Origin: Saprospiraceae bacterium
GTDB taxonomy: Bacteria; Bacteroidota; Bacteroidia; Chitinophagales; Saprospiraceae
Direction of reading: 5' to 3'
Length of the DNA stretch: 64,000 nucleotides
Assembly (NCBI GenBank): GCA_965223165.1
Contig: CBDCVQ010000009.1
Location: forward strand, 119,544-183,543
The notes beneath the pieces were generated by a model. The model was not told the DNA's origin and searched no databases. It was given only the letters and a program-made list of their open reading frames with translations. Position 1 is the first letter of the stretch; every line of letters starts with the position of its first letter. The position numbers and the translations under genes are program-made. Positions 12,568 through 64,000 of the stretch are shown here, piece after piece.

Positions 12568-13308
12568 ATGTCGACATCCAGGCTTATTCAATCGCTATTC
12601 AAGGTATTGCTAATTAGCACGCTGATTATCAGCCCCCTATTGTTGCTATCTCAACCAAAAGGTAAACTACTCGTGCGAAAGACTCAAGACTTTGAATTGG
12701 ATGGAGCCGGCTCGCACGAAGCTTGGAATCGGACCAGCTGGGCGGAGATCACCGCACAGAGGAATCCTAGACAGAATACCAGGACGCAGGCTAAGGTCTT
12801 GTACTCCGACAGTGGCTTGTACTTCCTATTTGACTGTCAGGACTCGCTACTGACTGCGTCCATGACGGAGGACATGGCGCATCTCTGGGAGGAGGACGTA
12901 GTGGAGGTTTTCCTGTGGACAGACAAAAAGCATCCGATCTATTTTGAGTACGAAATATCGCCCCTCAACTACGAGCTCCCTATCCTGGTGCCTAATCTCG
13001 GCTCGAGATTTAGGGGCTGGGCGCCCTGGGATTACGAGGGAGACCGCATGACCCGACGTCAGACCTCCGTGCAGGGTGGCAGCAAGCGCACGGGTGCCAG
13101 CATCAGCAGCTGGCGGGCGGAATTCTTCATCCCCTACGAGCTACTCATCCCACTGACCAAGGTGCCTCCGACCAGCGGCACCAAGTGGCGAGCGAATATG
13201 TATCGGATCGACTACGATGACCCTGCCAACCCAACTTGGTTTACCTGGCAGGAGATCCGCACCAATTTTCACGATTACAAACGATTTGGAACATTCATAT
13301 TTGAGTAA
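12568..13308 (+). CDS. Carbohydrate-binding family 9-like (DOMON-like) secreted protein
   Basis: ATG at 12568 gives a signal-like MSTSRLIQSLFKVLLISTLIISPLLLLSQ. The body (LYFLFDCQD, WEEDVVEVFL, WRAEFFIPY, WRANMYRIDYD) resembles CBM9-like domains. Confidence 0.65.
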   Translation: MSTSRLIQSLFKVLLISTLIISPLLLLSQPKGKLLVRKTQDFELDGAGSHEAWNRTSWAEITAQRNPRQNTRTQAKVLYSDSGLYFLFDCQDSLLTASMTEDMAHLWEEDVVEVFLWTDKKHPIYFEYEISPLNYELPILVPNLGSRFRGWAPWDYEGDRMTRRQTSVQGGSKRTGASISSWRAEFFIPYELLIPLTKVPPTSGTKWRANMYRIDYDDPANPTWFTWQEIRTNFHDYKRFGTFIFE

Positions 13309-13503
13309 CCACAAGTCTTACTGAGTGTTGACCTTGCTCTAGGGGAGACCAGAAGTCCTCTCAGGCAAACTACCTCCTGGACTCAGAGCAGATTAAGACA
13401 TGGCTCGCTACCAACGTACTTACATTGGCGATCTAGTCAATTATTTTACCGATCTTATTCCCATTCTGACTTGTTTACCGCCACAAAAAACCAAAATGGG
13501 ACC

Positions 13504-15048
13504 ATGCCACTTTCGAAAGTCTTAGCCTTAGTTCTTGGAATTGTATTGACGGGTTGCAGCGCCTCTCGAAACGCCGCCACCCAGCGGGACAATGGTAACA
13601 TTGAAATCATTGTACTGCAGCTAAACGACGTGTATGAAATTGCACCCCTTCCCGGCGACAATCTCGGGGGACTGGCAAGAGTTGCGACCCTCAAGCGAAG
13701 ATTGATTTCGGAAAATCCAAACACATTCATGATCCTTGCCGGTGACTTCGTCAGTCCATCGGTGATAGGCACCCTGGACGATGAGAACGGAGAAGGCATC
13801 GACGGCAAGCACATGGTCGAAACGCTGAATCATGCAGGCCTAGATATTGCCATATTCGGCAATCACGAATTTGACATCAAAGAGGCGGACCTTCAGAAGC
13901 GCATAAACGAATCTGCATTTGATTGGGTTAGCTCCAATGTTTTCTATGTGCAAAATGGCCAGGTAGGTCCTTTTTACAAGGTTCGAGGCTCGGAAAGACA
14001 GTTTGTACCCAAAACGCTCATTCGCCAGTTTAGCGATGGCGACGGCACCGAGTTGTCCGTGGGTGTTTTTGCCGTGACTCTGGACGTCAAGGACGCCCCG
14101 CATGTCACCTATGAAGACCCAACGGCTGTGGCTCGCGCGATGTTGACTGAGCTGCAGGAGCAGCAGGTGGATCTGGTCCTGCCCATCACGCATTTGAACA
14201 TTGCAGACGACGAACTATTGGCAGAGCAGATCCCTCATTTTCGATTGATTATGGGAGGGCATGATCATCACCACATGGCGCAAAAAGTGGGCAAAACGAC
14301 CATCACCAAGGCCGACGCCAACGCCAAAACGGCATATGTGCACCGGATCTTGCACAAGAAGAGGAGAGGAAAAACCAAGATCCGGTCTACGCTCGTCACG
14401 ATCGACTCGACGATTCCATCGGATCCGGGTGTACAGGCGGTGGTGGACAAATGGCAGCAAATCGCTGACAGCGATCTCAAAAAGAAAGGATTTGACCCCG
14501 ATGCCCTCGTCACGACCTTGGACACGCCGCTGGATGGTCGTGAACAAACCGTACGTGGGGGCCAATGTGAGTTGGGTGCCATCATTACCGGAGCAATCTA
14601 CGAGGCTGCTCAGGGTCAACCCGATCTGGCCCTAACCAACAGTGGCTCGATTCGGGTAGATGATATCCTGACAGGAAAACTAACTCAATACGACATCATA
14701 CGGATCCTACCCTATTCAGGGGAGACCTGGGAAGTGACAATGACCGGCACGCTGCTCAAGCGGCTTCTCGAGGCGAGCGAGGCCAACGTAAATGAAGGCG
14801 CCTATCTACAAATGAAGAATGTCGAGATCGATGCCCCTTCTAAAACCTTCAGAATCAATGGAGAACTTGTCAAGGTGGATCGAAACTATCGCGTAGCGCT
14901 CAACGATTTCATGCTGGCGGGCTACGACTATAAGTGGCTGACCGAACAGACCGAGGGCATCGTACAAATCGACAAGCCCTCTGTGACCAGCCCAGACGAT
15001 GTACGGCTAGACATCAGAAAAGCCGTCATCGCCTACTTGTCTAATTGA
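13504..15048 (+). CDS. Bifunctional metallophosphatase / 5'-nucleotidase, lipoprotein
   Basis: Lipobox VLTGCSAS. Calcineurin-like motifs are present (LQLNDVYE, AGDFVSPS, GNHEFD, GGHDHH), plus a C-terminal 5'-nucleotidase substrate-binding domain. Start taken at ATG 13504. Confidence 0.85.
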   Translation: MPLSKVLALVLGIVLTGCSASRNAATQRDNGNIEIIVLQLNDVYEIAPLPGDNLGGLARVATLKRRLISENPNTFMILAGDFVSPSVIGTLDDENGEGIDGKHMVETLNHAGLDIAIFGNHEFDIKEADLQKRINESAFDWVSSNVFYVQNGQVGPFYKVRGSERQFVPKTLIRQFSDGDGTELSVGVFAVTLDVKDAPHVTYEDPTAVARAMLTELQEQQVDLVLPITHLNIADDELLAEQIPHFRLIMGGHDHHHMAQKVGKTTITKADANAKTAYVHRILHKKRRGKTKIRSTLVTIDSTIPSDPGVQAVVDKWQQIADSDLKKKGFDPDALVTTLDTPLDGREQTVRGGQCELGAIITGAIYEAAQGQPDLALTNSGSIRVDDILTGKLTQYDIIRILPYSGETWEVTMTGTLLKRLLEASEANVNEGAYLQMKNVEIDAPSKTFRINGELVKVDRNYRVALNDFMLAGYDYKWLTEQTEGIVQIDKPSVTSPDDVRLDIRKAVIAYLSN

Positions 15049-15174
15049 TGTCCTGATCCAGGGAAATGTATTGATCGCTTTGGGAGCCAGACGATTTCGA
15101 GCAAGTTCCGCCGAGTAATCGTGTGGTCTCGAATGATGATCACTAGCGACATAAACTCTAAAGATTCCAGTCTA

Positions 15175-15253
15175 TTCTAATAATTAGCGCTAAATACTCG
15201 AGTCCGTTCTAATAATTAGCACTAAATACTCGAACCCATTCTAATAATTAGAG
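15175..15253. repeat. 32-bp direct tandem repeat, about 2.5 copies (TTCTAATAATTAGCRCTAAATACTCGARYCCR)
   Basis: Copies at 15175-15206, 15207-15238 and a partial copy at 15239-15253, each containing the near-palindrome CTAATAATTAG. It lies between the convergent 5'-nucleotidase and cupin genes. Confidence 0.85.
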
Positions 15254-15802: not shown

Positions 15803-16708
15803 ATGAATCGCCGTACTTTCATAAAAGTCAGCTCTTTAGCAAGCATCAGCGCCAGTAAACTGTTAAGTCCAAATCAAGCAATGCTACGCCGCACCATTCC
15901 CTCTTCAGGTCAAGCCCTACCTGTGGTAGGCTTGGGCACGTGGATCCAATTTGACGTTGACCCGGCTTCCTCAGAGGTCGAAGATCTCAAGGAAGTCTTG
16001 CGCACTATGCATCGCCATGGCGGCAAGATCATTGACAGCTCTCCCATGTACGGCCGCTCCGAAGGCATGATCGGACGTCTTACCAGAGAATTGAACCTGC
16101 AAGATGAATTCTTCTACGCCACAAAGGTCTGGACCTCTGGTCGAAGCGCCGGCATCCAGCAGATGGAGCAATCTATGCGTCTGATGGGTCGCCAAACAAT
16201 GGACCTGATGCAGATTCACAATCTAATGGACTGGGAAACACACATACGGACTCTCAAAGATTGGAAGGCAGCAGGCAAGATCAAATACTTTGGCATCACT
16301 CACTATACTGATTCGGCACACTCTCGGCTACAGAAAATCATTCGAAGCGAACCTGAACTTGACTTTGTACAATGCAACTATTCGATCAATGACCGGCACG
16401 CCGAAGATCGTCTCCTGCCCATGGCAAAGGATTACAACGTAGCCGTCATCATCAATCGGCCCTATGCCGGAGGCGCTCTATTCAGAAAAATTAGAGGCCG
16501 AGATCTGCCGGCTTGGGCTGCCGAATGTGACATCAACAGTTGGGGGCAGTTCTTTCTAAAGTATCTGTTGGGCAATCCGGCCGTCACCTGCGTTATCCCC
16601 GGCACGTCCAACCCCCAACACCTCGCCGATAACATGGGAGCGGCCACGGGACGCTTGCCCGACCAGGCCTTCCGAGCGCGCATGGTTGCCCACTTTCGAG
16701 GTATCTGA
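15803..16708 (+). CDS. Aldo/keto reductase with a Tat-like signal
   Basis: MNRRTFIKVSSLASISA is followed by AKR motifs (GLGTW, IDSSPMYGRSE, DLMQIHN, GITHY, IPGTSNPQHL). Confidence 0.85.
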   Translation: MNRRTFIKVSSLASISASKLLSPNQAMLRRTIPSSGQALPVVGLGTWIQFDVDPASSEVEDLKEVLRTMHRHGGKIIDSSPMYGRSEGMIGRLTRELNLQDEFFYATKVWTSGRSAGIQQMEQSMRLMGRQTMDLMQIHNLMDWETHIRTLKDWKAAGKIKYFGITHYTDSAHSRLQKIIRSEPELDFVQCNYSINDRHAEDRLLPMAKDYNVAVIINRPYAGGALFRKIRGRDLPAWAAECDINSWGQFFLKYLLGNPAVTCVIPGTSNPQHLADNMGAATGRLPDQAFRARMVAHFRGI

Positions 16709-42241: not shown

Positions 42242-42259
42242 GCAATTCCAAGATCGGAT

Positions 42260-42397
42260 CAATTTCAATGGCAATTTCAATTTCAATGGCAATGGCAATT
42301 TCGATGGCAATGGCAATTTCAATGGCAATGGCAATGACAATTTCGATGGCAATGGCAATTTCAATGGCAATGGCAATTTCAATGGCAATGACAGTGG
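42260..42397 (+). repeat. Hexanucleotide tandem array (CAATKK), 23 units, with an 18-bp higher-order unit CAATTT-CAATGG-CAATGG
   Basis: Parsed unit by unit from the sequence. Variants are CAATTT, CAATGG, CGATGG, CAATGA and CAGTGG. It starts 18 nt after the paralog-4 stop codon. Confidence 0.95.
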
Positions 42398-45713: not shown

Positions 45714-46046
45714 ATGAGTAGACATCACCTGGGAGAATTTGAAGAGATCGTCATGCTGACTGTAGCCATCCTGCACGGGGAGGCATATGGTATTGCCATC
45801 TTAAATGAAATCGAGGACCGTCTCCATCGCAAGGTGAGTATCGGCTCGCTTCAGACCGTGTTGCGGCGGCTCGAAGACAAGGGCTATCTCAGTTCTGAGC
45901 TTGGTGAGGCCACAGCGGTACGGGGAGGAAAACGAAAGCGATTCTTTCAGGTGACAAATTACGGAAAGAAAGTGCTGACACAGACGAAGGAGCAACGAAT
46001 GTCTCTTTGGAAAGCTATTCCTAAAATCGCCTGGGATCGCTCATGA
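45714..46046 (+). CDS. PadR-family transcriptional regulator (short, 110 aa)
   Basis: LGEFEEIVMLTVAILHGEAYGIAILNEI...GSLQTVLRRLEDKGYLSSELGEATAVRGGKRKRFFQVT. Its stop overlaps the next start (ATGA). Confidence 0.9.
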   Translation: MSRHHLGEFEEIVMLTVAILHGEAYGIAILNEIEDRLHRKVSIGSLQTVLRRLEDKGYLSSELGEATAVRGGKRKRFFQVTNYGKKVLTQTKEQRMSLWKAIPKIAWDRS

Positions 46047-51667: not shown

Positions 51668-54115
51668 ATGTTTCGAAATAATCTGAAGATCGCATGGCGA
51701 AACGTCCTTCGCCACAAACTGTACAGCTTGCTCAACGTGCTTGGGCTGGGATTTGGCATCGCCTGCTTTCTCTTCATAGCACTATATGTCATCGATGAGT
51801 TAACCTTCGACCGATTTCACCAAAAGTCGGATCGGATATATCGACTCGTCCAACATCGTGAATCGCCCGAGGAGGGTGTCCAAAAATTTGGAGCCGTTTC
51901 TTACAATGCCGGCGTAGCTGCGCGCGAGGAGATCGCCGGCGTGGAAAGCAGTACCCATCTCTTCATGTTTGGTCGGGCCGTCCTGCGCAATCCGGCCAAC
52001 CAAAATGCCTTCTATCAGCCATTCTTAACGGCTGAGCCCACTTTTTTTGATCTCTTTGATTTTGCGTTCATCTCAGGAGATCCATCTACGGCTCTGGCAG
52101 AACCAAACACGGTCGTGTTGGAGCAAGACCTGGCTCAAAGACTCTTTGGCGACCTTGACCCCATGGGACAAATACTACGTAGCGATCGGGGCATGGATCT
52201 GGAGGTTACCGGTGTGCTGAAAGACCTACCTTCCAATTCGCATATTCAATTTGAATCCTTGATCTCACAGGCTACCCTCGAAGCGGTACCCTTTTGGGAG
52301 AGGAATATGCCCGGCGATTGGTCCAGCCAGAACTTTGGCACCTACCTGGCACTGCACCCCGACCAGGAGCCTGCAACGATCGGTGCGCAATTGACGGATT
52401 TTGCCCGGGCCCGAGCAAGGGAAGAACGGCCTTTTACGGGCCATTTGGAATTGCAACCCCTCACCGACATTCACTTTGGATCCGAGGGATACCAGCGCGA
52501 ATTAAACGAGCAGAAGAGCACCTATACTTATCTCTACATATTTAGTTTGATCGGACTTTTTATTGTACTCATTGCTTGTGTCAACTATGTAAACCTGGCC
52601 ACCGCACGTTCGTCCAAGTACAGCCGAGAGGTCGGCGTAAGAAAGGTGGTAGGTGCCGGTCGCCGACAGTTGTTCGCTCGCTTCCTTTCTGAAAGTGTAG
52701 TGTTGACGCTGTTGGCTTTCTTCCTGGCCGTGGCCTTGACCCAGGCAGGCTTACCTCTGTTTAATGAATTTACCGGCAAAGCACTCACTCTCAATTTATT
52801 TGCCTCTGGCTGGACCATCCCCACCATGGCTGCGATCATTTTCCTGGTCAGCCTATTGGCCGGTAGTTATCCCTCGATCTATCTCTCTCGATTTCGGCCA
52901 TCCGTGGTACTCAAGGGCGTACAAAACACGGAAAAGGGTAAGCATGGTCTGTTGAGGCGAGGACTGGTCGTACTTCAGTTTTCGATCTCCATTCTGATGA
53001 TCATCGGCACATTGGTCGCGTGGCGTCAGGTAAGTTTCGTGATGCATCGTGATCTGGGTTTTGCCCAAGACCAGCGTATCGTAGTAGATATAAATAGTGG
53101 TCGGGTGCGGCAGGGATTTGAAACCATCAAGCATGGCTATGAGCAATTGCCGGACGTAAGATCGGTTTCTGTGAGCAGCCGCGTCCCCGGCGAATGGAAG
53201 ACTCTACTGCAGGCGGAGATCCGACCGGAAGGCAAGTTTGCCGAAACGGGGCCTACCCCTTGGTTTATTGGTGCGGACGAGGATTTTCTCGAGACCTTTG
53301 AAATCGATCTGATCAGCGGGCGAAATTTTGATCCGCAGCGTCCCATGGATTCCGCATCAATCATTCTCAATCAGCAAGCGGCAGCGGTCTTAGGCATCGA
53401 TGCTGCCGCGGGACAGTCCGTGCAAGTGGTCAGCCGAATTGCCAATGGTTCAGAGCGGATGTTTGACGAACCATTTCGGGCGCAAGTCATTGGCATCATG
53501 GAGGACTTCAATTTTCAGTCGTTATACGAGCCCGTTACTCCACTGGTGCTGGCATACCGCAGTAATCCGGTGCAAGCCATCGATTATTTTACCGCCCATG
53601 TATCCGGTCAAAACACCGAAAGGACGATCCAGCAGATGACCGAGATCCTGCACTCCGTCGATCCTGAACAATTATTCGAATATCACTTTTTGGACGAGCA
53701 GATCGATCAATTTTACGAGGCAGACGTCCAGCGCTCACAGCTCTTTTCTACCGCAGCCCTCTGTGCCATCTTTATTGCGTGCCTGGGGCTCTTTGGTCTC
53801 GCCGCATTTATGGCCGAGCAACGCACCAAGGAAATTGGCATACGGAAAGTGCTGGGATCGAGTACCGTTGGCATCGTCCAACTGCTGTCGAAGGATTTTA
53901 TCAAACTGGTACTGATTGCGCTGTTGGTGGCCTCTCCCCTTGCCTATCACTTCATGGAGCAATGGCTGCAGGGGTTTGCCTACCGCATTAGCATCGCCTG
54001 GTGGATGTTTGCGGTAGCCGGTGCCTTTGCCGCTACCATCGCTTTGGTGACGGTAGGATATCATAGTATTAGAGCCGCTACGTCCAACCCGGCAGAAGCA
54101 TTGCGGAGTGAATAG
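51668..54115 (+). CDS. Duplicated FtsX/MacB-type ABC permease (paralog 7)
   Basis: 815 aa with N-terminus MFRNNLKIAWRNV. Motifs are VNYVNLATARSSKYSREVGVRKVVGA and QRTKEIGIRKVLGSS; the C-terminus is NPAEALRSE. Confidence 0.9.
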   Translation: MFRNNLKIAWRNVLRHKLYSLLNVLGLGFGIACFLFIALYVIDELTFDRFHQKSDRIYRLVQHRESPEEGVQKFGAVSYNAGVAAREEIAGVESSTHLFMFGRAVLRNPANQNAFYQPFLTAEPTFFDLFDFAFISGDPSTALAEPNTVVLEQDLAQRLFGDLDPMGQILRSDRGMDLEVTGVLKDLPSNSHIQFESLISQATLEAVPFWERNMPGDWSSQNFGTYLALHPDQEPATIGAQLTDFARARAREERPFTGHLELQPLTDIHFGSEGYQRELNEQKSTYTYLYIFSLIGLFIVLIACVNYVNLATARSSKYSREVGVRKVVGAGRRQLFARFLSESVVLTLLAFFLAVALTQAGLPLFNEFTGKALTLNLFASGWTIPTMAAIIFLVSLLAGSYPSIYLSRFRPSVVLKGVQNTEKGKHGLLRRGLVVLQFSISILMIIGTLVAWRQVSFVMHRDLGFAQDQRIVVDINSGRVRQGFETIKHGYEQLPDVRSVSVSSRVPGEWKTLLQAEIRPEGKFAETGPTPWFIGADEDFLETFEIDLISGRNFDPQRPMDSASIILNQQAAAVLGIDAAAGQSVQVVSRIANGSERMFDEPFRAQVIGIMEDFNFQSLYEPVTPLVLAYRSNPVQAIDYFTAHVSGQNTERTIQQMTEILHSVDPEQLFEYHFLDEQIDQFYEADVQRSQLFSTAALCAIFIACLGLFGLAAFMAEQRTKEIGIRKVLGSSTVGIVQLLSKDFIKLVLIALLVASPLAYHFMEQWLQGFAYRISIAWWMFAVAGAFAATIALVTVGYHSIRAATSNPAEALRSE

Positions 54116-54307
54116 CAATTTCAATGGCAATAGCAATTTCAATGGCAATTTCAATGGCAATGGCAATTTCAATTTCAATGGCAATGGCAATGGCAATTTC
54201 AATGGCAATAGCAATTTCAATGGCAATGGCAATTTCAATGGCAATAGCAATTTCAATGGCAATAGCAATTTCAATGGCAATTTCAATGGCAATGGCAATG
54301 GCAATTA
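54116..54307 (+). repeat. Hexanucleotide tandem array (CAATTT/CAATGG/CAATAG), 32 units, starting at the base after the stop codon
   Basis: Parsed unit by unit. The stop TAG is at 54113-54115 and the first CAATTT is at 54116. A recurring 18-bp super-unit is CAATTT-CAATGG-CAAT(G/A)G. Confidence 0.95.
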
Positions 54308-54356
54308 GCAGTGAACAATTAGCAATTAGCAATGAACAATTAACAATGAGCAATGA
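54308..54356 (+). repeat. Heptanucleotide tandem array (RCAATKA), 7 units
   Basis: GCAGTGA ACAATTA GCAATTA GCAATGA ACAATTA ACAATGA GCAATGA, read directly and contiguous with the hexamer array. Confidence 0.85.
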
Positions 54357-54430
54357 GCAGTTTATTAGGATCGTAGAGCACGGACGCTTTGCGGGAGTGA
54401 TCTGCGAGCCGCAACCAGGGATACAACTAG

Positions 54431-54528
54431 CAGTGAACAATTAGGCAATGGCATTTCAATATCAATAGCAATGTCAATGACAATGTCATACAGTGCACAA
54501 ATCAACAATTCAACATCTACACAATTCC
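54431..54528 (+). repeat. Degenerate CAAT-core repeat tract
   Basis: CAGTGAACAATTAGGCAATGGCATTTCAATATCAATAGCAATGTCAATGACAATGTCA...CAACAATTCAACATCTACACAATTCC. It mixes decayed 6-8-bp CAAT units between the heptamer and octamer arrays. Confidence 0.7.
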
Positions 54529-54728
54529 ACCATAAAACCATAAAACCATAAAACCATAAAACCATAAGACCATAAGACCATAAGACCATAAGACCATAAG
54601 ACCATAAAACCATAAAACCATAAAACCATAAGACCATAAGACCATAAGACCATAAAACCATAAAACCATAAAACCATAAAACCATAAGACCATAAAACCA
54701 TAAAACCATAAAACCATAAGACCATAAA
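54529..54728 (+). repeat. Octanucleotide tandem array (ACCATAAR), 25 units, ending 2 nt before the ATG of paralog 8
   Basis: Parsed unit by unit. With A = ACCATAAA and G = ACCATAAG the order is AAAA GGGGG AAA GGG AAAA G AAA G A. It is exactly 200 bp, followed by AT then ATG (54731). Confidence 0.95.
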
Positions 54729-54730
54729 AT

Positions 54731-57103
54731 ATGTTTAGAAATCACATGAGGGTGGCCTGGAGGAATTTGATTAAATATCCCTCCTATTCATTGGTGAATC
54801 TTTGCGGATTGGCGCTCGGTATCTCCGCCTCCTTCGTGCTGCTGCTCTATGCGATTCAGGAGTTGAGCTATGATCGGCATTTTGCTGATGGCGATCGCAT
54901 CTACCGCATCGCTGCGGACTTCTATAATATGGGTGGCTTCGCCAAGAGCCAGGAGGGGCTGTTGGATCATCTGCCTTCCGAGTGTCCCAGCATTGCGCAG
55001 TATACGCGATTTGACAAGGGAACCGCTTTGGAGCTGACAGTGGATGATCAGCCTTATGTGGAACGAGATTTCCTTTATGTCGACTCTCTTTTCTTTCAGA
55101 TGTTTCCTTACACATTCGTAGAAGGAGAGGCCGGCGAGGTGATGACCACGCCTCATGAGATCATTCTCTCGGAAAGGCTTGCCCGCAAATATTTTGGAAA
55201 AGAAAGCGCACTCGGCAAGTACGTGGAAATCGGAGAAGATGGACTATCGTATCGCGTATCAGGGGTGGTACAGTCTACGACCAAGAAGACTCATCTAAAG
55301 TCTGATCTCTGGCTCCCCGTATACAATAGACATGAGAAAAATCCACATTGGACCAATGTCACCTACTATAATTACGTAAAACTACATCCATCTGCGGGGG
55401 CGCATGATCTTGAGATTGCGCTGGAGGAGTTGCGGCGAAAGAAAGTGCATCCTTCGATCGCACCTAATTCTAGCTTTGAGGAGTGGTCACAGAGTGATTT
55501 TGCCGTCAAATTCTTCGTACAGCCGCTCCATGACATTTATTTGCACTCCGACTTTGCCATGATGGAGACGATACCCGGCGGCAATCCTACGCAAATTTAC
55601 ATCCTCGGGATCATAGGTATATTCATCATTCTGATCGCCGGATCCAATTACATAAACCTCACCACGGCTCGATCGTCCCTTCGCGGAAAGGAAGTGGGTA
55701 TCCGCAAGACCTTGGGCGCGGAGCGTCGGATGCTCGTCAAACAGATGCTGACCGAGTCCATTCTGTTTAGCCTGTTGGCCGCGGTGATCGCAGCTGGCTT
55801 GGTCGAAATCCTGCTCTTGGCCTTTAAGAAGATCAGTGGGACAGCCATTCTATCGACGCTGCTCAGCGGCTGGCAATACATTGGTCTGCTATTGTTATAC
55901 TCCTTGCTATCAGGAGTATTCGCGGGCATTTATCCTGCGTTTTATCTGACGGCCTTCCGACCTGCACGCACGATCAAGGGCAACTTTACGGCCAAGGGCA
56001 ACAAGCGTCTTCGCGGCGGACTAGTCAGCCTACAGTTTTGCATCGCGATCGCCTTGATTGTATCCAGCCTAATCGTCTACCAGCAATTAAGATATCTCCA
56101 GACCAAGGATACGGGATTTGAAATGGAGGGAGTGGTAGTAGTGGATAATGTGGTCGACCTGGGTGGGCAGGAGGAAGCGTTCAGACAAAAATTAAGGACG
56201 CAGCCGCAGTTGCAGTTATCTAGCTTTGCGCAGCGATTACCCGCTGGCAACAGCATGTGGATGAGTTCTTACCGTACGCCGGAGATGAGTGAGACGGTAA
56301 CGATCCAGACCTTTCCGGTAGACGCCGACTACATACCTGTGATGGGTATGCGATTGGAGTCCGGTCGAAACTTTGACCGCCAACTGGCGACTGACTCCAA
56401 TTCGGTTATTATCAACGAGATGGCCGCCAAGAAGCTGGGGCTTACTCAGCCAATTGGTTCGGTACTCAACGGCAATCTGAAAGTGGTTGGCCTGGTACGC
56501 GATTTTAATTTCCAATCGTTTAGAGACCAGATCGCTCCTGCCGTCCTGACGATGGGAAAAGAGATGGGTAGACTACTCATTCTCAAACTCCATGGCACCG
56601 ACATCAGTAGCTTCTTAACCTATATGAATGAAACATGGCTCGAATTCTCCAGTGAGGAGCCGATACAGTATCATTTTCTCGAGGAAAATTTTGCAACCCT
56701 GGTCCAGAACGAACGAACCTTGAGTCAAGCCATCGGTTTTTTCACTCTTTTGGCATTGATCATCGCCTGTCTGGGCCTTTACGGCTTGGCATCCTTCACG
56801 GCAGAGCAGCGGACGCGAGAAATCGGCATTCGCAAGATCCTAGGTTCGTCGACGTTTGGTATCGTCAGTCTACTTTCACGGGACTTCCTCAAACTCGTCC
56901 TGATTGCTTTAGTGGTGGCAGCCCCGATTGCCTACGTCTTAATGAATCAATGGCTGCAGGGCTTTGCCTTTCGGATTCAGATATCGTGGTGGACCTTTGC
57001 CTTAGCGGGCCTAGCGGCTATGGCTATTGCATTTCTCACCGTAGGATATCAAAGTCTGAAAGTAGCCCTTACAAACCCTGCAGATTCGCTACGAAATGAA
57101 TGA
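54731..57103 (+). CDS. Duplicated FtsX/MacB-type ABC permease (paralog 8)
   Basis: 790 aa with N-terminus MFRNHMRVAWRNL. Motifs are SNYINLTTARSSLRGKEVGIRKTLGA and QRTREIGIRKILGSS; the C-terminus is NPADSLRNE. Confidence 0.9.
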   Translation: MFRNHMRVAWRNLIKYPSYSLVNLCGLALGISASFVLLLYAIQELSYDRHFADGDRIYRIAADFYNMGGFAKSQEGLLDHLPSECPSIAQYTRFDKGTALELTVDDQPYVERDFLYVDSLFFQMFPYTFVEGEAGEVMTTPHEIILSERLARKYFGKESALGKYVEIGEDGLSYRVSGVVQSTTKKTHLKSDLWLPVYNRHEKNPHWTNVTYYNYVKLHPSAGAHDLEIALEELRRKKVHPSIAPNSSFEEWSQSDFAVKFFVQPLHDIYLHSDFAMMETIPGGNPTQIYILGIIGIFIILIAGSNYINLTTARSSLRGKEVGIRKTLGAERRMLVKQMLTESILFSLLAAVIAAGLVEILLLAFKKISGTAILSTLLSGWQYIGLLLLYSLLSGVFAGIYPAFYLTAFRPARTIKGNFTAKGNKRLRGGLVSLQFCIAIALIVSSLIVYQQLRYLQTKDTGFEMEGVVVVDNVVDLGGQEEAFRQKLRTQPQLQLSSFAQRLPAGNSMWMSSYRTPEMSETVTIQTFPVDADYIPVMGMRLESGRNFDRQLATDSNSVIINEMAAKKLGLTQPIGSVLNGNLKVVGLVRDFNFQSFRDQIAPAVLTMGKEMGRLLILKLHGTDISSFLTYMNETWLEFSSEEPIQYHFLEENFATLVQNERTLSQAIGFFTLLALIIACLGLYGLASFTAEQRTREIGIRKILGSSTFGIVSLLSRDFLKLVLIALVVAAPIAYVLMNQWLQGFAFRIQISWWTFALAGLAAMAIAFLTVGYQSLKVALTNPADSLRNE

Positions 57104-57104
57104 G

Positions 57105-57158
57105 CAATGGCAATTTCAATGGCAATTTCAATGGCAATTTCAATGGCAATAGCAATAC
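57105..57158 (+). repeat. Hexanucleotide tandem array (CAATGG/CAATTT alternating), 9 units
   Basis: It starts 1 nt after stop TGA 57101-57103: CAATGG CAATTT CAATGG CAATTT CAATGG CAATTT CAATGG CAATAG CAATAC. Confidence 0.9.
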
Positions 57159-57169
57159 GGAGGTCAGTT

Positions 57170-57217
57170 CAACAATTCAACAATTCAACAATTCAACAAT
57201 TCAACAATTCAACAATT
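57170..57217 (+). repeat. Octanucleotide tandem array (CAACAATT), 6 perfect units, ending 14 nt before the ATG of paralog 9
   Basis: Parsed directly. It is followed by CGACACCATAACAC then ATG (57232). The ACCATAA just before the start echoes the 54529 array unit. Confidence 0.9.
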
Positions 57218-57231
57218 CGACACCATAACAC

Positions 57232-59610
57232 ATGATTAGAAATTACTTCATCACGGCATATCGCAATTTGTGGCGGAACAAAATGGTGTCCGCGATCAGT
57301 ATTGTAGGACTATCCATTGGTATAGCTGTCGGGCTGCTCAGTTATCTTCATATCAGATACGAACTTAGCTTCGATGGATTTCACGATAAGAAAGACCGGA
57401 TCTATCGCATCGTCACCGGAGACGTCAAGTCCGGTCAAGGATGGGTGGGGATTTCGGCACCCATTCCTCCGAAATTAAAATCGGATATTCCCGAGATTGA
57501 AGATTTTGTGCGTCTGACCAAGCTGGACCGAGATGGAAAGGTCGTTGTCCACCACGACAACCAAAGTTTTAACGAGGCCAATTTCTTTCTGGCGGATGCC
57601 TCCCTGTTCTCCATTTTTGATTTTTCCTTTATTCATGGACAGCCCGAGCAGGCCTTTCAGACGCCCGATGGCATAGTCGTCACGGCTAGCAGGGCCGAAA
57701 AGTTGTTTGGGGCAAGTTCACCCCTGGGTAAGATTGTCAAGATCAACGACAAACACGAGTTTCGTGTCAGCGGTGTCATCGAAGATCTGCGGCCTAACTC
57801 GCACCTCGCGTTGGACATGATTGTTTCCTTCGAAAACTTGGAAACGCTGCTTCCGTACGCCAGCTTGGACGGCAACTGGGGACAATACAATTACTATGGT
57901 TATGCCCTACTCCGTCAAGGAGCCGATCTTGCTGCTGCCGAGCGCAAGATAAAAGCGATCGAAGTGCCCCTCAAAGATTACACGCATACTTTTGAACAGC
58001 TGGGGCTGCAGCCCATGACCGACATTCACTTCGAACACAATCGGGGGAATATGAAGGCCTCTTATGATCGTAAATATTTGTACATCTATGGGGCCTCTGC
58101 CCTTGGGCTCATCTTTATTTCTTTGGTCAACTTCATAAATCTGAAAACGGCTGGGTCGTCCAAACGCATCCGCGAGGTAGGCGTGCGAAAAGCGATCGGG
58201 GCAAGACGCGGCGAACTCGTGGTGCAGTTTGTTGCCGAGGCCTTCCTTCTTTGCCTGGTCTCGTTGGCCCTCGGCCTATTTATCATGAACACCTGGCTCC
58301 TGCCCTACGTCAATAATTTACTGGGTGCCGACCTCCAGTTTCACCTATTTGACCTCCCCAATGCCAGTCTTGGCCTCCTTGGCCTTCTCGTGATCAGCCT
58401 ATTGTCAGGTACCTATATCGCCCAATTCATCACGTCCTTCTCACCTATGGAGGCCCTCAAGAGTCAAATTAAGACCAGCTCAGGTCGTGGATTGAAGTTT
58501 CGTGATGTGCTGCTCGGCGTCCAGTTTTTTGTGTCTCTGATTTTGATCATTGGCAGCTTGATCATCACCCGCCAAATGCAGCATGTCTCCGATATCAACT
58601 TAGGTCTCAATCCGGACCAGGTCCTCAACATCCCGCTCTATGTCGAAGTGGAGAAGGAGAAGCGATCGGTCCTGAAGAACGAGTTGAACTCCCTACCCAA
58701 CGTCACCCACGTGTCACTCAACAGCTTTAATCCCGGTCAGGCCAATTGGAATCAGACCACCTGGTGGGAGGGGCAGGAAGAGGACGAGAGCATGTTTATC
58801 ATCAGTGTAGATCCTGACTTCTTTGAAACGGCCGACGTCAAATTAATCGAAGGTAGCCTTGACCACATCAAAAGCAACCTCAGCGAACGCTATACCTATG
58901 TGCTCAACCAGTCGGCCAGGCAACACATCGGATGGGAGCAGGCGGTGGGACGGCAAGTATCACCCTTTGGCGATGACGCCCGAAAGCCGGTAACCGGAGT
59001 GATCGAAGACTTCACCTTTCAGTCCCTGCACGATCGTGTAAAGCCATGCCTCCTGGTCGTAGGTGATCTTACCCCGTCCCAACTGTATGTAAAGGTCAGG
59101 GCACAAGATGTGCAGGCGACCGTAGCAGCCGTCGAGGACAAGTTGGCAAGCATTCTGCCGGCACTGCCCTTTGAATATGCGTTTTTGGATGATCTCTTCG
59201 GTCAGTTATATTTGGCAGAAACGCAAGCTAGAGAAATCAGTCTATTCTATACCATCGTTTGCATACTGCTGGCCTTATTCGGCTTATATGGGATTCTGAC
59301 GTTTGAAGTCACCGAACGAGCCAAAGAAATCGCCATTCGCAAAGTGATTGGGGCCAAGGTATTGCACATCGTGGGTCTACTTTCTCGCGACTTCTTAAGG
59401 CTCATCCTGATCGCACTCGTCTTGGCCTCTCCCATCGCCTATTTTATGATGGATGGATGGCTCCAGGATTTTGCCTACCGCATTGACATTCCGTGGTGGA
59501 TTTTTGTCGTCGCAGGTCTGGTGGCGGCGCTCATTGCCCTGGCAATTGTCGCACTCCAAGGTGTGCGTGCAGCTCTACTAAATCCCGTACACGCATTAAG
59601 AGGAGAATAA
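57232..59610 (+). CDS. Duplicated FtsX/MacB-type ABC permease (paralog 9)
   Basis: 792 aa with N-terminus MIRNYFITAYRNL. Motifs are VNFINLKTAGSSKRIREVGVRKAIGA and ERAKEIAIRKVIGAK; the C-terminus is NPVHALRGE. Confidence 0.9.
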   Translation: MIRNYFITAYRNLWRNKMVSAISIVGLSIGIAVGLLSYLHIRYELSFDGFHDKKDRIYRIVTGDVKSGQGWVGISAPIPPKLKSDIPEIEDFVRLTKLDRDGKVVVHHDNQSFNEANFFLADASLFSIFDFSFIHGQPEQAFQTPDGIVVTASRAEKLFGASSPLGKIVKINDKHEFRVSGVIEDLRPNSHLALDMIVSFENLETLLPYASLDGNWGQYNYYGYALLRQGADLAAAERKIKAIEVPLKDYTHTFEQLGLQPMTDIHFEHNRGNMKASYDRKYLYIYGASALGLIFISLVNFINLKTAGSSKRIREVGVRKAIGARRGELVVQFVAEAFLLCLVSLALGLFIMNTWLLPYVNNLLGADLQFHLFDLPNASLGLLGLLVISLLSGTYIAQFITSFSPMEALKSQIKTSSGRGLKFRDVLLGVQFFVSLILIIGSLIITRQMQHVSDINLGLNPDQVLNIPLYVEVEKEKRSVLKNELNSLPNVTHVSLNSFNPGQANWNQTTWWEGQEEDESMFIISVDPDFFETADVKLIEGSLDHIKSNLSERYTYVLNQSARQHIGWEQAVGRQVSPFGDDARKPVTGVIEDFTFQSLHDRVKPCLLVVGDLTPSQLYVKVRAQDVQATVAAVEDKLASILPALPFEYAFLDDLFGQLYLAETQAREISLFYTIVCILLALFGLYGILTFEVTERAKEIAIRKVIGAKVLHIVGLLSRDFLRLILIALVLASPIAYFMMDGWLQDFAYRIDIPWWIFVVAGLVAALIALAIVALQGVRAALLNPVHALRGE

Positions 59611-63735: not shown

Positions 63736-63736
63736 A

Positions 63737-64000
63737 CGATGGCAATGGCAATGGCAATGGCAATGACAATTTCAATGGCAATGAACAATGAACAGTGAAC
63801 AATGAACAGTGAACAATGAACAGTGAACAGTGAACAGTGGCAATGACAATGACAATGGCAATGACAATATCAATGGCAATGAACAATGAACAGTGAACAA
63901 TGAACAGTGAACAATGAACAATGAACAGTGAACAATGAACAGTGAACAATGAACAGTGAACAATGAACAGTGAACAATGAACAGTGAACAATGAACAGTG
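63737..64000 (+). repeat. Composite tandem-repeat tract of alternating hexamer (CAATGR/CAATTT) and heptamer (ACAATGA/ACAGTGA) blocks, running off the window end
   Basis: Parsed directly as hexamers 63737-63784 (8 units), heptamers 63785-63840 (8), hexamers 63841-63882 (7), and heptamers 63883-64000 (16+, mostly the 14-mer ACAATGAACAGTGA). It starts 1 nt after stop TGA 63733-63735. Confidence 0.95.

Follow-up and report, generated by a model that had tools for sequence, protein, structure and literature searches.

A compound spacer of 6-, 7-, and 8-nt tandem repeats between two permease genes of a Saprospiraceae bacterium

The 613-nt spacer between two transporter genes of a Saprospiraceae bacterium (assembly GCA_965223165.1, contig CBDCVQ010000009.1) was found to be a pile-up of 6-, 7-, and 8-nt tandem repeats on the + strand. 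It occupies positions 54116-54728 of the 64,000-nt stretch analyzed here, which we call the window (contig positions 119,544 to 183,543, forward strand). The upstream gene, paralog 7 (51668-54115, +, with a TAG stop at 54113-54115), and the downstream gene, paralog 8 (54731-57103, +), encode MacB_PCD/FtsX permeases of 815 and 790 aa, respectively, according to Pfam. We consider it probable, though by no means certain, that this spacer is a compound variable-number tandem repeat (VNTR) that arose by slippage and resembles the short tandemly repeated repetitive (STRR) sequences of cyanobacteria, rather than a dedicated sequence-specific signal.

Recounting the units bore out the four repeat families, the unit numbers, and the coordinates given in an earlier note on this DNA. 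The stop codon of paralog 7 is adjoined by 32 CAATNN hexamers (54116-54307, +; 16 CAATGG, 11 CAATTT, 4 CAATAG, and 1 CAATTA), which differ at the NN positions only, contain 19% G and 17% C, and show higher-order periodicities of 12 and 18 nt. Seven heptamers follow (54308-54356, +); the consensus RCAATKA proposed for them holds for six units, but the first unit is GCAGTGA. They belong to the family of the CAATGAA/CAGTGAA array at 63779-64000, where more than 32 copies are present. A GC-richer island of 74 nt (54357-54430, +; GC content of 54% compared with 30-35% in the arrays) lies between the two imperfect copies of the direct repeat CAAYTAGCAGTGAACAATTAG at 54302-54331 and 54424-54453. The degenerate CAAT tract after the island (54431-54528, +) contains CAATNN hexamers at 54457-54488 and approximately two degenerate copies of TTCAACAA at 54497-54527, and it is followed by 25 ACCATAAR octamers (54529-54728, +; 15 ACCATAAA and 10 ACCATAAG) with 5% G, 25% C, and 58% A. 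As the note stated, the repeats begin at the base after the stop codon of paralog 7, and the last unit ends 2 nt before the ATG of paralog 8 (54731). The whole spacer consists of 43% A, 21% C, 15% G, and 21% T, with a GC content of 36% versus 51% for the window. Its description as G-poor and A/C-rich fits the 3' half but not the hexamer half.

Tandem Repeats Finder called the same arrays and started the hexamer array at 54111, with the stop codon in phase with the hexamers. Three CAATNN units plus CAAT matched the window 56 times (0 expected from 100 shuffles) and ACCATAARACCATAAR matched it 24 times (0 expected in shuffles), in both cases on the + strand only. Structurally, the tract is therefore a simple sequence repeat (SSR) or VNTR, being arranged head to tail (32 x 6, 7 x 7, and 25 x 8 nt) beyond chance, and it is placed as non-coding VNTRs are, between the stop and the start of Pfam-supported genes. 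The island, octamer, TTCAACAA, and heptamer units had no match in the 208 loci fetched for comparison, and the island sequence had no other match in the window.

That the repeats encode small peptides, for example (MAIS)n at 54124-54444 or the 42-aa open reading frame (ORF) at 57107-57235 in the next spacer, is most improbable. ORFs of this kind exist mechanically, and the one at 57107-57235 ends in an ATGA overlap with the next gene; however, chance alone is expected to produce such an overlap in 1 of 3 cases. Moreover, the heptamers and octamers shift the frame with each unit and contain stop codons in all frames, in agreement with the tract having been noted as non-coding, the open frames differ between spacers, and the (MAIS)n translation had no match among 5.8 billion proteins (E <= 1e-3). 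Mis-assembly of short reads, as the source of the tract or of its length, is also very unlikely. The 200-nt run of 8-mers and the 192-nt run of 6-mers are longer than typical short reads, but the window holds four such arrays with boundaries flush with intact ORFs, and the patterns of internal variants are irregular and non-periodic. In addition, the same array classes are present in isolate assemblies (Flavobacterium profundi, F. palustre, and Flavilitoribacter nigricans) and in three Lewinellaceae-like assemblies, so that doubt is limited to the exact copy number.

Three further permease genes of the window have CAAT-family arrays after their stop codons, always on the coding strand. Approximately 21 CAATGG/CAATTT hexamers at 42242-42390 (+) start 18-24 nt past the stop of the last permease gene of the first of two gene clusters. 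The spacer at 57104-57231 (+) consists of nine CAATGG/CAATTT units, a short unique piece, seven copies of TTCAACAA, and a single ACCATAA before the ATG, and the spacer at 63736-64000 (+) contains CAATGG/CAATGA hexamers and then more than 32 CAATGAA/CAGTGAA heptamers, continuing beyond the end of the window. These spacers have a common layout (CAATKK hexamers, CARTGAA/CAATTAG heptamers, a unique piece, TTCAACAA, ACCATAA, and ATG), and each of them expands another sub-array. ACCATAAR is present in 25 copies in the 613-nt spacer and in one copy at 57232, TTCAACAA in approximately two copies in the former and in seven at 57168, and CARTGAA in seven copies in the former and in more than 32 at 63779. 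In single copy, the leader 'ACACCATAA' precedes the ATG at 57232 and also the start codon of a permease gene in the relative L120 (15120), which points to the octamer unit as the native start-proximal leader.

Identical 22-mers are common to the four window spacers. Because the permease paralogs are only 23-38% identical and their arrays are nearly identical, the arrays are far younger than the gene duplications. It appears that the arrays must have spread or been homogenized among the spacers, or must have been generated repeatedly; inheritance of the spacers together with recent gene duplications was rejected on account of the same 23-38% identity. Derivation of the units from the last permease codons plus stop codon (GAATGA/GAATAG-like) by amplification was also tried and rejected, the longest common substring being 3.42 compared with 3.27 +/- 0.12 for permuted pairings (p = 0.13). 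As a separate observation, a 42-codon ORF spans the 128-nt repeat spacer (57107-57235), starting 4 nt past the upstream stop, and its TGA overlaps the ATG of the next gene; the overlap may be a coincidence, expected in 1 of 3 cases, or the ORF may bridge the two genes by termination-reinitiation.

We propose that the ancestral spacer between the two co-directional permease genes was short and was enlarged by replication slippage and unequal exchange. Seeds would have been amplified in place, namely CAATNN by the stop, CARTGAA, TTCAACAA, and the native A/C-rich leader ACCATAA by the start, and the GC-rich island would be a remnant of the unique spacer. Unit families would have been exchanged or homogenized among the four spacers of the gene array. 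The anchoring at stop and start would follow because arrays grow within short spacers bounded by coding sequence. The tract would probably be transcribed with its flanking genes as an untranslated, nearly structure-free linker, and selection would act on placement only, keeping start-adjacent arrays G-poor, unstructured, and free of start codons while copy number and exact sequence drift.

Three Lewinellaceae-like assemblies (L120, L122, and L206) contain HlyD-ABC-permease arrays (ABC, ATP-binding cassette) whose genes are approximately 83% identical to each other. Their spacers are built of 7-8-nt tandem repeats with units unrelated to those of the window (GTGCATTG, GGTGTAAA, AAGGAGTG, 20 copies of ACGGGTAC, and 12 copies of TCTCCCAA). 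The layout is that of the window, running from the stop through a G-containing array, a GC-rich core, and a G-free array to the ATG, and the GC-rich core is the sole unique piece in these analogous spacers also. An orthologous spacer consists in L206 (12368-12594) of the stop, 19 copies of GTGYATTG, the GC-rich core, 13 copies of (TCAA/TCAT), and the ATG; the corresponding spacer contains two copies of GTGTATTG in L120 and none in L122. Judging from these three spacers (19, 2, and 0 copies), copy number turns over between species at this orthologous position. A metagenome scan for a second strain gave a best match of only 48% identity. The permease gene call at 12490-15000 of L206 is 35 codons too long and enters the GTGCATTG array, the true start being at 12595.

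In many spacers of these relatives, the arrays at the 5' and 3' sides are complementary to each other and form strong predicted hairpins (z = -2.4 to -13). Whole intercistronic hairpin spacers between permease paralogs were observed at L133 3365-3458 and 5900-5993, L201 2655-2800, L120 9777-10000 and 14908-15119, and L122 9895-10000 and 20004-20340. Their arms are complementary tandem 7-8-nt arrays, for example 4.6 copies of AAGGAGGA, a loop, and 5.6 copies of TCCTTTCC, with the G-rich arm on the stop side in every case. Just 5' of permease starts, four unrelated metagenome contigs (L134 462-495, L149 5119-5149, L153 8085-8118, and L204 4001-4071) share the octamer AATGAACT/AATGAACC, similar to CAATGAA of the window.

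The arrays at the two ends of such spacers differ in composition. Stop-abutting arrays had a G content of 0.34 and a C content of 0.10, compared with 0.08 and 0.27 in start-abutting arrays (p = 1.6e-4), and the window tract follows this rule. Since opposite G contents at the ends of one spacer are inexplicable by strand-wide mutation bias, they argue for a constraint on the region of the start codon, and a constraint of this kind would agree with initiation that does not depend on a Shine-Dalgarno sequence, as in Bacteroidota. Upstream of the ATG of paralog 8, no ATG, GTG, or TTG is present over 235 nt, compared with 5-86 nt upstream of the other genes. Translation-initiation regions of Bacteroidetes have been reported to lack Shine-Dalgarno sequences, to have little structure, and to be depleted of AUG (PMC6847099), and the start-codon-free leader with its predicted low structure fits such starts. 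The predicted unpaired probability from -20 to +20 around the ATG was 0.66 for the native sequence, the highest in the gene array, 0.65 with three octamers, and 0.57 with none. As three octamers suffice, a need for all 25 to keep the start codon accessible was rejected.

No inverted repeat was found within 54050-54800, consistent with the noted absence of evident self-complementarity. The tract was folded computationally on both strands, as the earlier note had suggested. The sense RNA had a predicted energy of -74 kcal/mol for 615 nt (-0.12 per nt), compared with -101 +/- 7 kcal/mol for dinucleotide shuffles (z = +3.8 to +4.6), and all four window spacers folded worse than their own shuffles (z = +1.7 to +4.6); the fold of the antisense RNA, however, was ordinary (z = +0.95). 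The sense strand thus agrees with the structure-free linker that had been proposed, but this property is not special. Arrays with permuted unit positions folded equally weakly in 26% (hexamers) and 16% (whole tract) of cases, indicating that weak folding is a by-product of repeating a G-poor, non-self-complementary unit, and it was therefore rejected as evidence of selection for a structure-free sense RNA.

The island had been singled out as the only place where a conventional signal could sit. It is indeed the only non-repetitive piece, but no promoter, terminator, or Rfam match was detectable in it. The arms of the noted stem TTGCGG...CCGCAA are present, with the CCGCAA arm ending at 54415 rather than 54414, but the predicted fold prefers another, imperfect 15-bp hairpin at 54368-54410, which is not significant (z = -1.1) and is followed by AACCAGGGAT. 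Scans for sigma-70 or Bacteroidetes-type promoters found none in or next to the tract, island included, and a scan for intrinsic terminators (GC-rich hairpin plus U-tract) found none within 54116-54730. Rfam 15 gave no match at E <= 1 in 41000-64000 except for a chance match to a small nucleolar RNA elsewhere. Because no promoter was found in the spacer, paralog 8 probably relies on read-through.

Rho utilization (rut) sites are marked by approximately 80 nt or more of RNA that is not translated, has little structure, is rich in C and poor in G, and has YC dimers at regular intervals. As predicted from sequence, the 3' half of the tract has these hallmarks: the segment 54496-54573 (23 C and 1 G per 78 nt) ranks in the top 0.1% of the 78-nt segments of the + strand for C over G, 12.5 YC dimers are present per 100 nt of untranslated sequence, and the composition is rut-like over 54496-54728. 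In contrast, rut sites are not tandem repeats, and the hexamer and heptamer parts do not have more C than G, the C/G counts being 32/36 in the hexamer arrays and 40/60 in the heptamer array from 63736 onward.

These features bear on the idea that the tract is a contingency locus, in which the copy number of transcribed repeats acts as a rheostat that tunes the downstream permease paralog(s). More octamers would give a longer unstructured, C-rich, G-poor untranslated RNA and with it more Rho loading or mRNA decay and stronger polarity, and slippage would create cell-to-cell differences in the permease paralogs that accompany a shared ABC ATPase. We regard this explanation as possible but unlikely. 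The C-rich, YC-rich, untranslated 3' half, the probable dependence of paralog 8 on read-through, and an enrichment of tandem arrays after permease stops (see below) are in its favor, as is the precedent of (ATCTTTC)n in the 5' untranslated region (5'-UTR) of Haemophilus influenzae hmw1A, where expression is inverse to repeat number (PMC12721329). However, the Rho model covers only part of the repeats, given that the hexamer arrays and the heptamers from 63736 do not have more C than G, and short arrays elsewhere are stable at approximately 0.3% divergence. The hmw mechanism, moreover, requires a hairpin, which the tract does not have. The hmw1A/hmw2A repeats resemble the tract as heptamer arrays upstream of a start codon, and they lie in a transcribed leader in which copy number sets expression (PMC12721329). 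They differ in that the long hairpin, formed by the repeats and a G-rich arm, and RNase III are needed, whereas the window tract is without a complementary arm; furthermore, a promoter is known upstream of the hmw repeats, and none was found at the tract.

To follow the units beyond the window, one genome per species was scanned with a pattern of at least six CAATNN units, which required CAAT by design; 119 loci were among the matches listed, to which the counts in this paragraph refer. Of 31 mixed arrays, defined by at least three unit types, 28 belonged to Bacteroidota (Flavobacterium, Saprospiraceae, and Flavilitoribacter), compared with 7 of 71 pure single-unit arrays (p = 2e-15), and degenerate CAATNN arrays appear to be almost confined to this phylum among these matches. 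The mixed arrays are intergenic and often begin 0-10 nt past the stops of unrelated genes (multicopper oxidase, CobU, deformylase, RecN-like, and others). They are mostly co-oriented with genes (22:7, p = 0.008; 26:7 including the window, p = 0.001) and often have an inverted (NNATTG)n partner with which they form strong hairpins (z = -14 at L005, -5 at L048, -4 at L056, and -4 at L016). In two Flavobacterium species with near-identical flanks, the alignment showed a 24-nt gap, corresponding to four hexamer units, and changes at NN positions only. Saprospiraceae loci contained up to eight arrays per 8 kb.

Two arrangements were observed in addition. At L005 4978-5075 and L053 55-196, from the Saprospiraceae metagenome-assembled genome (MAG) JANQPA01, convergent genes each have (CAATNN)n after the stop on their own strand, and the paired arrays form a near-perfect long hairpin (L005, z = -14) resembling a bidirectional 3'-end element. 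In Flavobacterium MAGs, which represent another Bacteroidota class, CAATNN hexamers at L011 5619-5978 and L090 1422-1600 give way within one spacer to AACTCAC/AACTCAT heptamers that extend as far as the next gene; like the window tract, these spacers are compound.

Arrays with a period of 5-12 nt were also counted in co-directional spacers of 86 loci (L120-L205) plus the window. They were present after a permease stop in 24 of 115 spacers (21%) and in 5 of 125 others (4%; p = 5e-5); gene calls were naive and the paralogs are not independent, so that this enrichment is a lead rather than a result. Bacteroidota are unusually dense in short tandem repeats among prokaryotes according to a survey of the tree of life (PMC12699852). 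Our literature search, which was incomplete in coverage and yields absence of evidence only, found nothing on CAATGG/CAATNN arrays, Saprospiraceae tandem repeats, repeat spacers running from stop to start, or their polarity. As far as the genomes and this literature go, the repeat-built gene spacer is a class that is common in Bacteroidota and hardly described.

The distribution invites the interpretation that the CAAT core at 6-nt spacing is recognized as such, in DNA or sense RNA, and serves as a multi-site platform for a Bacteroidota-specific protein; elsewhere the same units would be arms of 3'-end hairpins, acting as terminators or stabilizers. We consider sequence-specific recognition quite unlikely. 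It would account for the near-confinement of degenerate arrays to Bacteroidota among the matches listed, for their co-orientation with genes, for their frequent start 0-10 nt past the stops of unrelated genes, for the inverted partners with strong hairpins, and for the restriction of variation to NN among the 32 hexamers of the window. However, since the scan demanded CAAT, conservation of the core outside the window is partly ascertainment, and the window arrays are without an inverted partner. The heptamers alternate between CAAT and CAGT, and the orthologous or analogous spacers of Lewinellaceae use the unrelated units GTGCATTG, GGTGTAAA, and AAGGAGTG. We know of no candidate binding protein for CAATNN units.

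Several observations nevertheless weigh against slippage and drift as the whole explanation. Copy number at the window locus would be hypervariable on this explanation, and short arrays were unchanged in two metagenome pairs at 99.6-99.99% identity (L138 and L188 differ by 41 single-nucleotide polymorphisms and no indels). Drift leaves unexplained why the CAAT core is retained as NN varies, why degenerate arrays with this core are nearly confined to Bacteroidota among the matches listed, why they recur in two classes of this phylum mostly in co-orientation with genes (26:7), and why arrays are in approximately fivefold excess after permease stops. In addition, a 613-nt stretch that is untranslated and has more C than G would be expected to trigger termination by Rho within an operon, and the tract may thus influence expression. 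The unexplained core, co-orientation, and permease excess keep alive both the rheostat, through Rho polarity or mRNA processing, and the recognition or hairpin explanation.

A broader proposal, tentative and rather doubtful in our judgment, is that these arrays are members of a Bacteroidota-wide class of transcribed intercistronic or 3'-UTR elements, anchored at stop and start codons, whose slippage-driven copy number, or hairpins formed with an inverted partner, set polarity and with it the relative expression of neighboring genes. CAATNN would be the most widespread member, and units would contain G after a stop and be free of G before a start; we hold this part with the same reserve. If the proposal were true, selecting among the many alternative MacB-type permease paralogs served by a common ABC ATPase would be its plainest example, and free-living Bacteroidota would possess a contingency system that corresponds in function to the cyanobacterial STRR, for which an explanation has long been missing.

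The earlier note did not recognize the organization of the tract from described bacterial elements. This did not hold, as intergenic SSR/VNTR arrays have been described as cyanobacterial STRR (PMC2670836) and in Flavobacterium psychrophilum (PMC4501049), and the spacer at L206 12368-12594 has the same organization. STRR are tandem arrays of 7-mers, located for example between hupS and hupL, whose function is unknown and for which roles in transcript stability or translational coupling have been proposed (PMC2670836). The likeness lies in arrays of approximately 7-nt units in intergenic or intercistronic spacers, lineage-specific and dispersed over many loci, and the repeat-built hairpins of Lewinellaceae look alike. 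The differences are that the window tract is in another phylum with unrelated units, combines 6-, 7-, and 8-nt families, is much longer, and forms no hairpin. STRR families with defined consensus heptamers were reportedly described by Mazel et al. in 1990. The window units (CAATNN, RCAATKA, and ACCATAAR) in a Bacteroidota host are not those of a consensus family of heterocystous cyanobacteria. As to position, the tract is intercistronic like STRR but without a hairpin (z = +4.6), and the relatives' spacers have one (z = -2.4 to -13).

In F. psychrophilum, intergenic 7-8-nt VNTRs serve as markers for multiple-locus VNTR analysis, and their copy number differs between isolates (PMC4501049). They resemble the tract in phylum and as intergenic heptamer or octamer arrays, but they have been described as typing markers only, with single unit families and modest copy numbers, and filling from stop to start, compound architecture, or a link to paralog arrays was not reported. 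In Geobacter metallireducens, dozens of loci carry repeat families in which 7-8-nt units stand in tandem 4-5 times, frequently in pairs on opposite strands; a role as regulator sites or as RNA elements has been suggested for them (PMC2700814). In contrast to the long, variable, and compound arrays of the window type, they keep a constant, small number of copies (4-5), and each element is conserved in its entirety. Among other repetitive extragenic DNA, the note had set aside repetitive extragenic palindromic (REP) sequences, bacterial interspersed mosaic elements (BIMEs), miniature inverted-repeat transposable elements (MITEs), and CRISPR, and our analysis agrees. REP and BIME contain an imperfect palindrome of approximately 35-40 nt, and the tract has no inverted repeats. 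It has no terminal inverted repeats as in a MITE, the flanking direct repeat (54302-54331/54424-54453) belonging to the heptamer array, and its units are 6-8 nt long and contiguous, compared with the 24-48-nt repeats and unique spacers of CRISPR. What is new here is that arrays of the STRR/VNTR type are present in a further lineage, where their architecture is distinctively compound and polar.

The two flanking genes and seven more make up nine duplicated MacB_PCD/FtsX permeases of approximately 800 aa in the window, arranged in two co-directional clusters, with pairwise amino-acid identities of 23-38%. The first cluster comprises a sigma-54 activator gene on the opposite strand, then genes for an HlyD-like protein, two ABC ATPases, and three permeases; the second comprises PadR, then permeases, an S41/TPR protein, and one further permease. 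PadR heads the second cluster, and its stop overlaps the start of the first permease gene (46043-46046). Within 31746-63735, at least nine anciently diverged permease paralogs stand beside a single HlyD-like gene and a pair of ABC ATPase genes, and this layout of few ATPases and many permeases was also observed in L120, L122, L125, L206, and L207. Paralog 8 has an alternative start at a second ATG (54746), which is used for the database entry P0001 (785 aa). P0001 matched with 100% identity, and the next homologues reached only 55% (Lewinellaceae, Phaeodactylibacter, and Saprospiraceae MAGs), so that the collections searched contain no closely related sequenced genome. Apart from the permease clusters, 2.9 copies of a 32-nt unit, CTAAATACTCGAGTCCATTCTAATAATTAGCA, unrelated to the CAAT arrays, lie at 15158-15251, flanked by genes for a 5'-nucleotidase-like protein (13471-15048) and an aldo/keto reductase (15803-16708).

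To our knowledge, long simple repeats are scarce in most bacterial genomes, and in the few lineages with many of them their function has never been explained, STRR being the classic case. The spacers described here mean that Saprospiraceae-like Bacteroidota construct entire gene-to-gene spacers from short repeats under simple rules: arrays are anchored at the stop and the start, they contain G after the stop and are free of G before the start, and their copy number turns over between species. This suggests that Shine-Dalgarno-independent initiation limits which repeat grows where. In practice, gene callers mis-place starts inside arrays (observed in L206, and perhaps also for P0001), and array sizes may be wrong in short-read assemblies. 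If copy number tunes downstream expression, such spacers would be a cheap source of heterogeneity among dozens of transporter paralogs.

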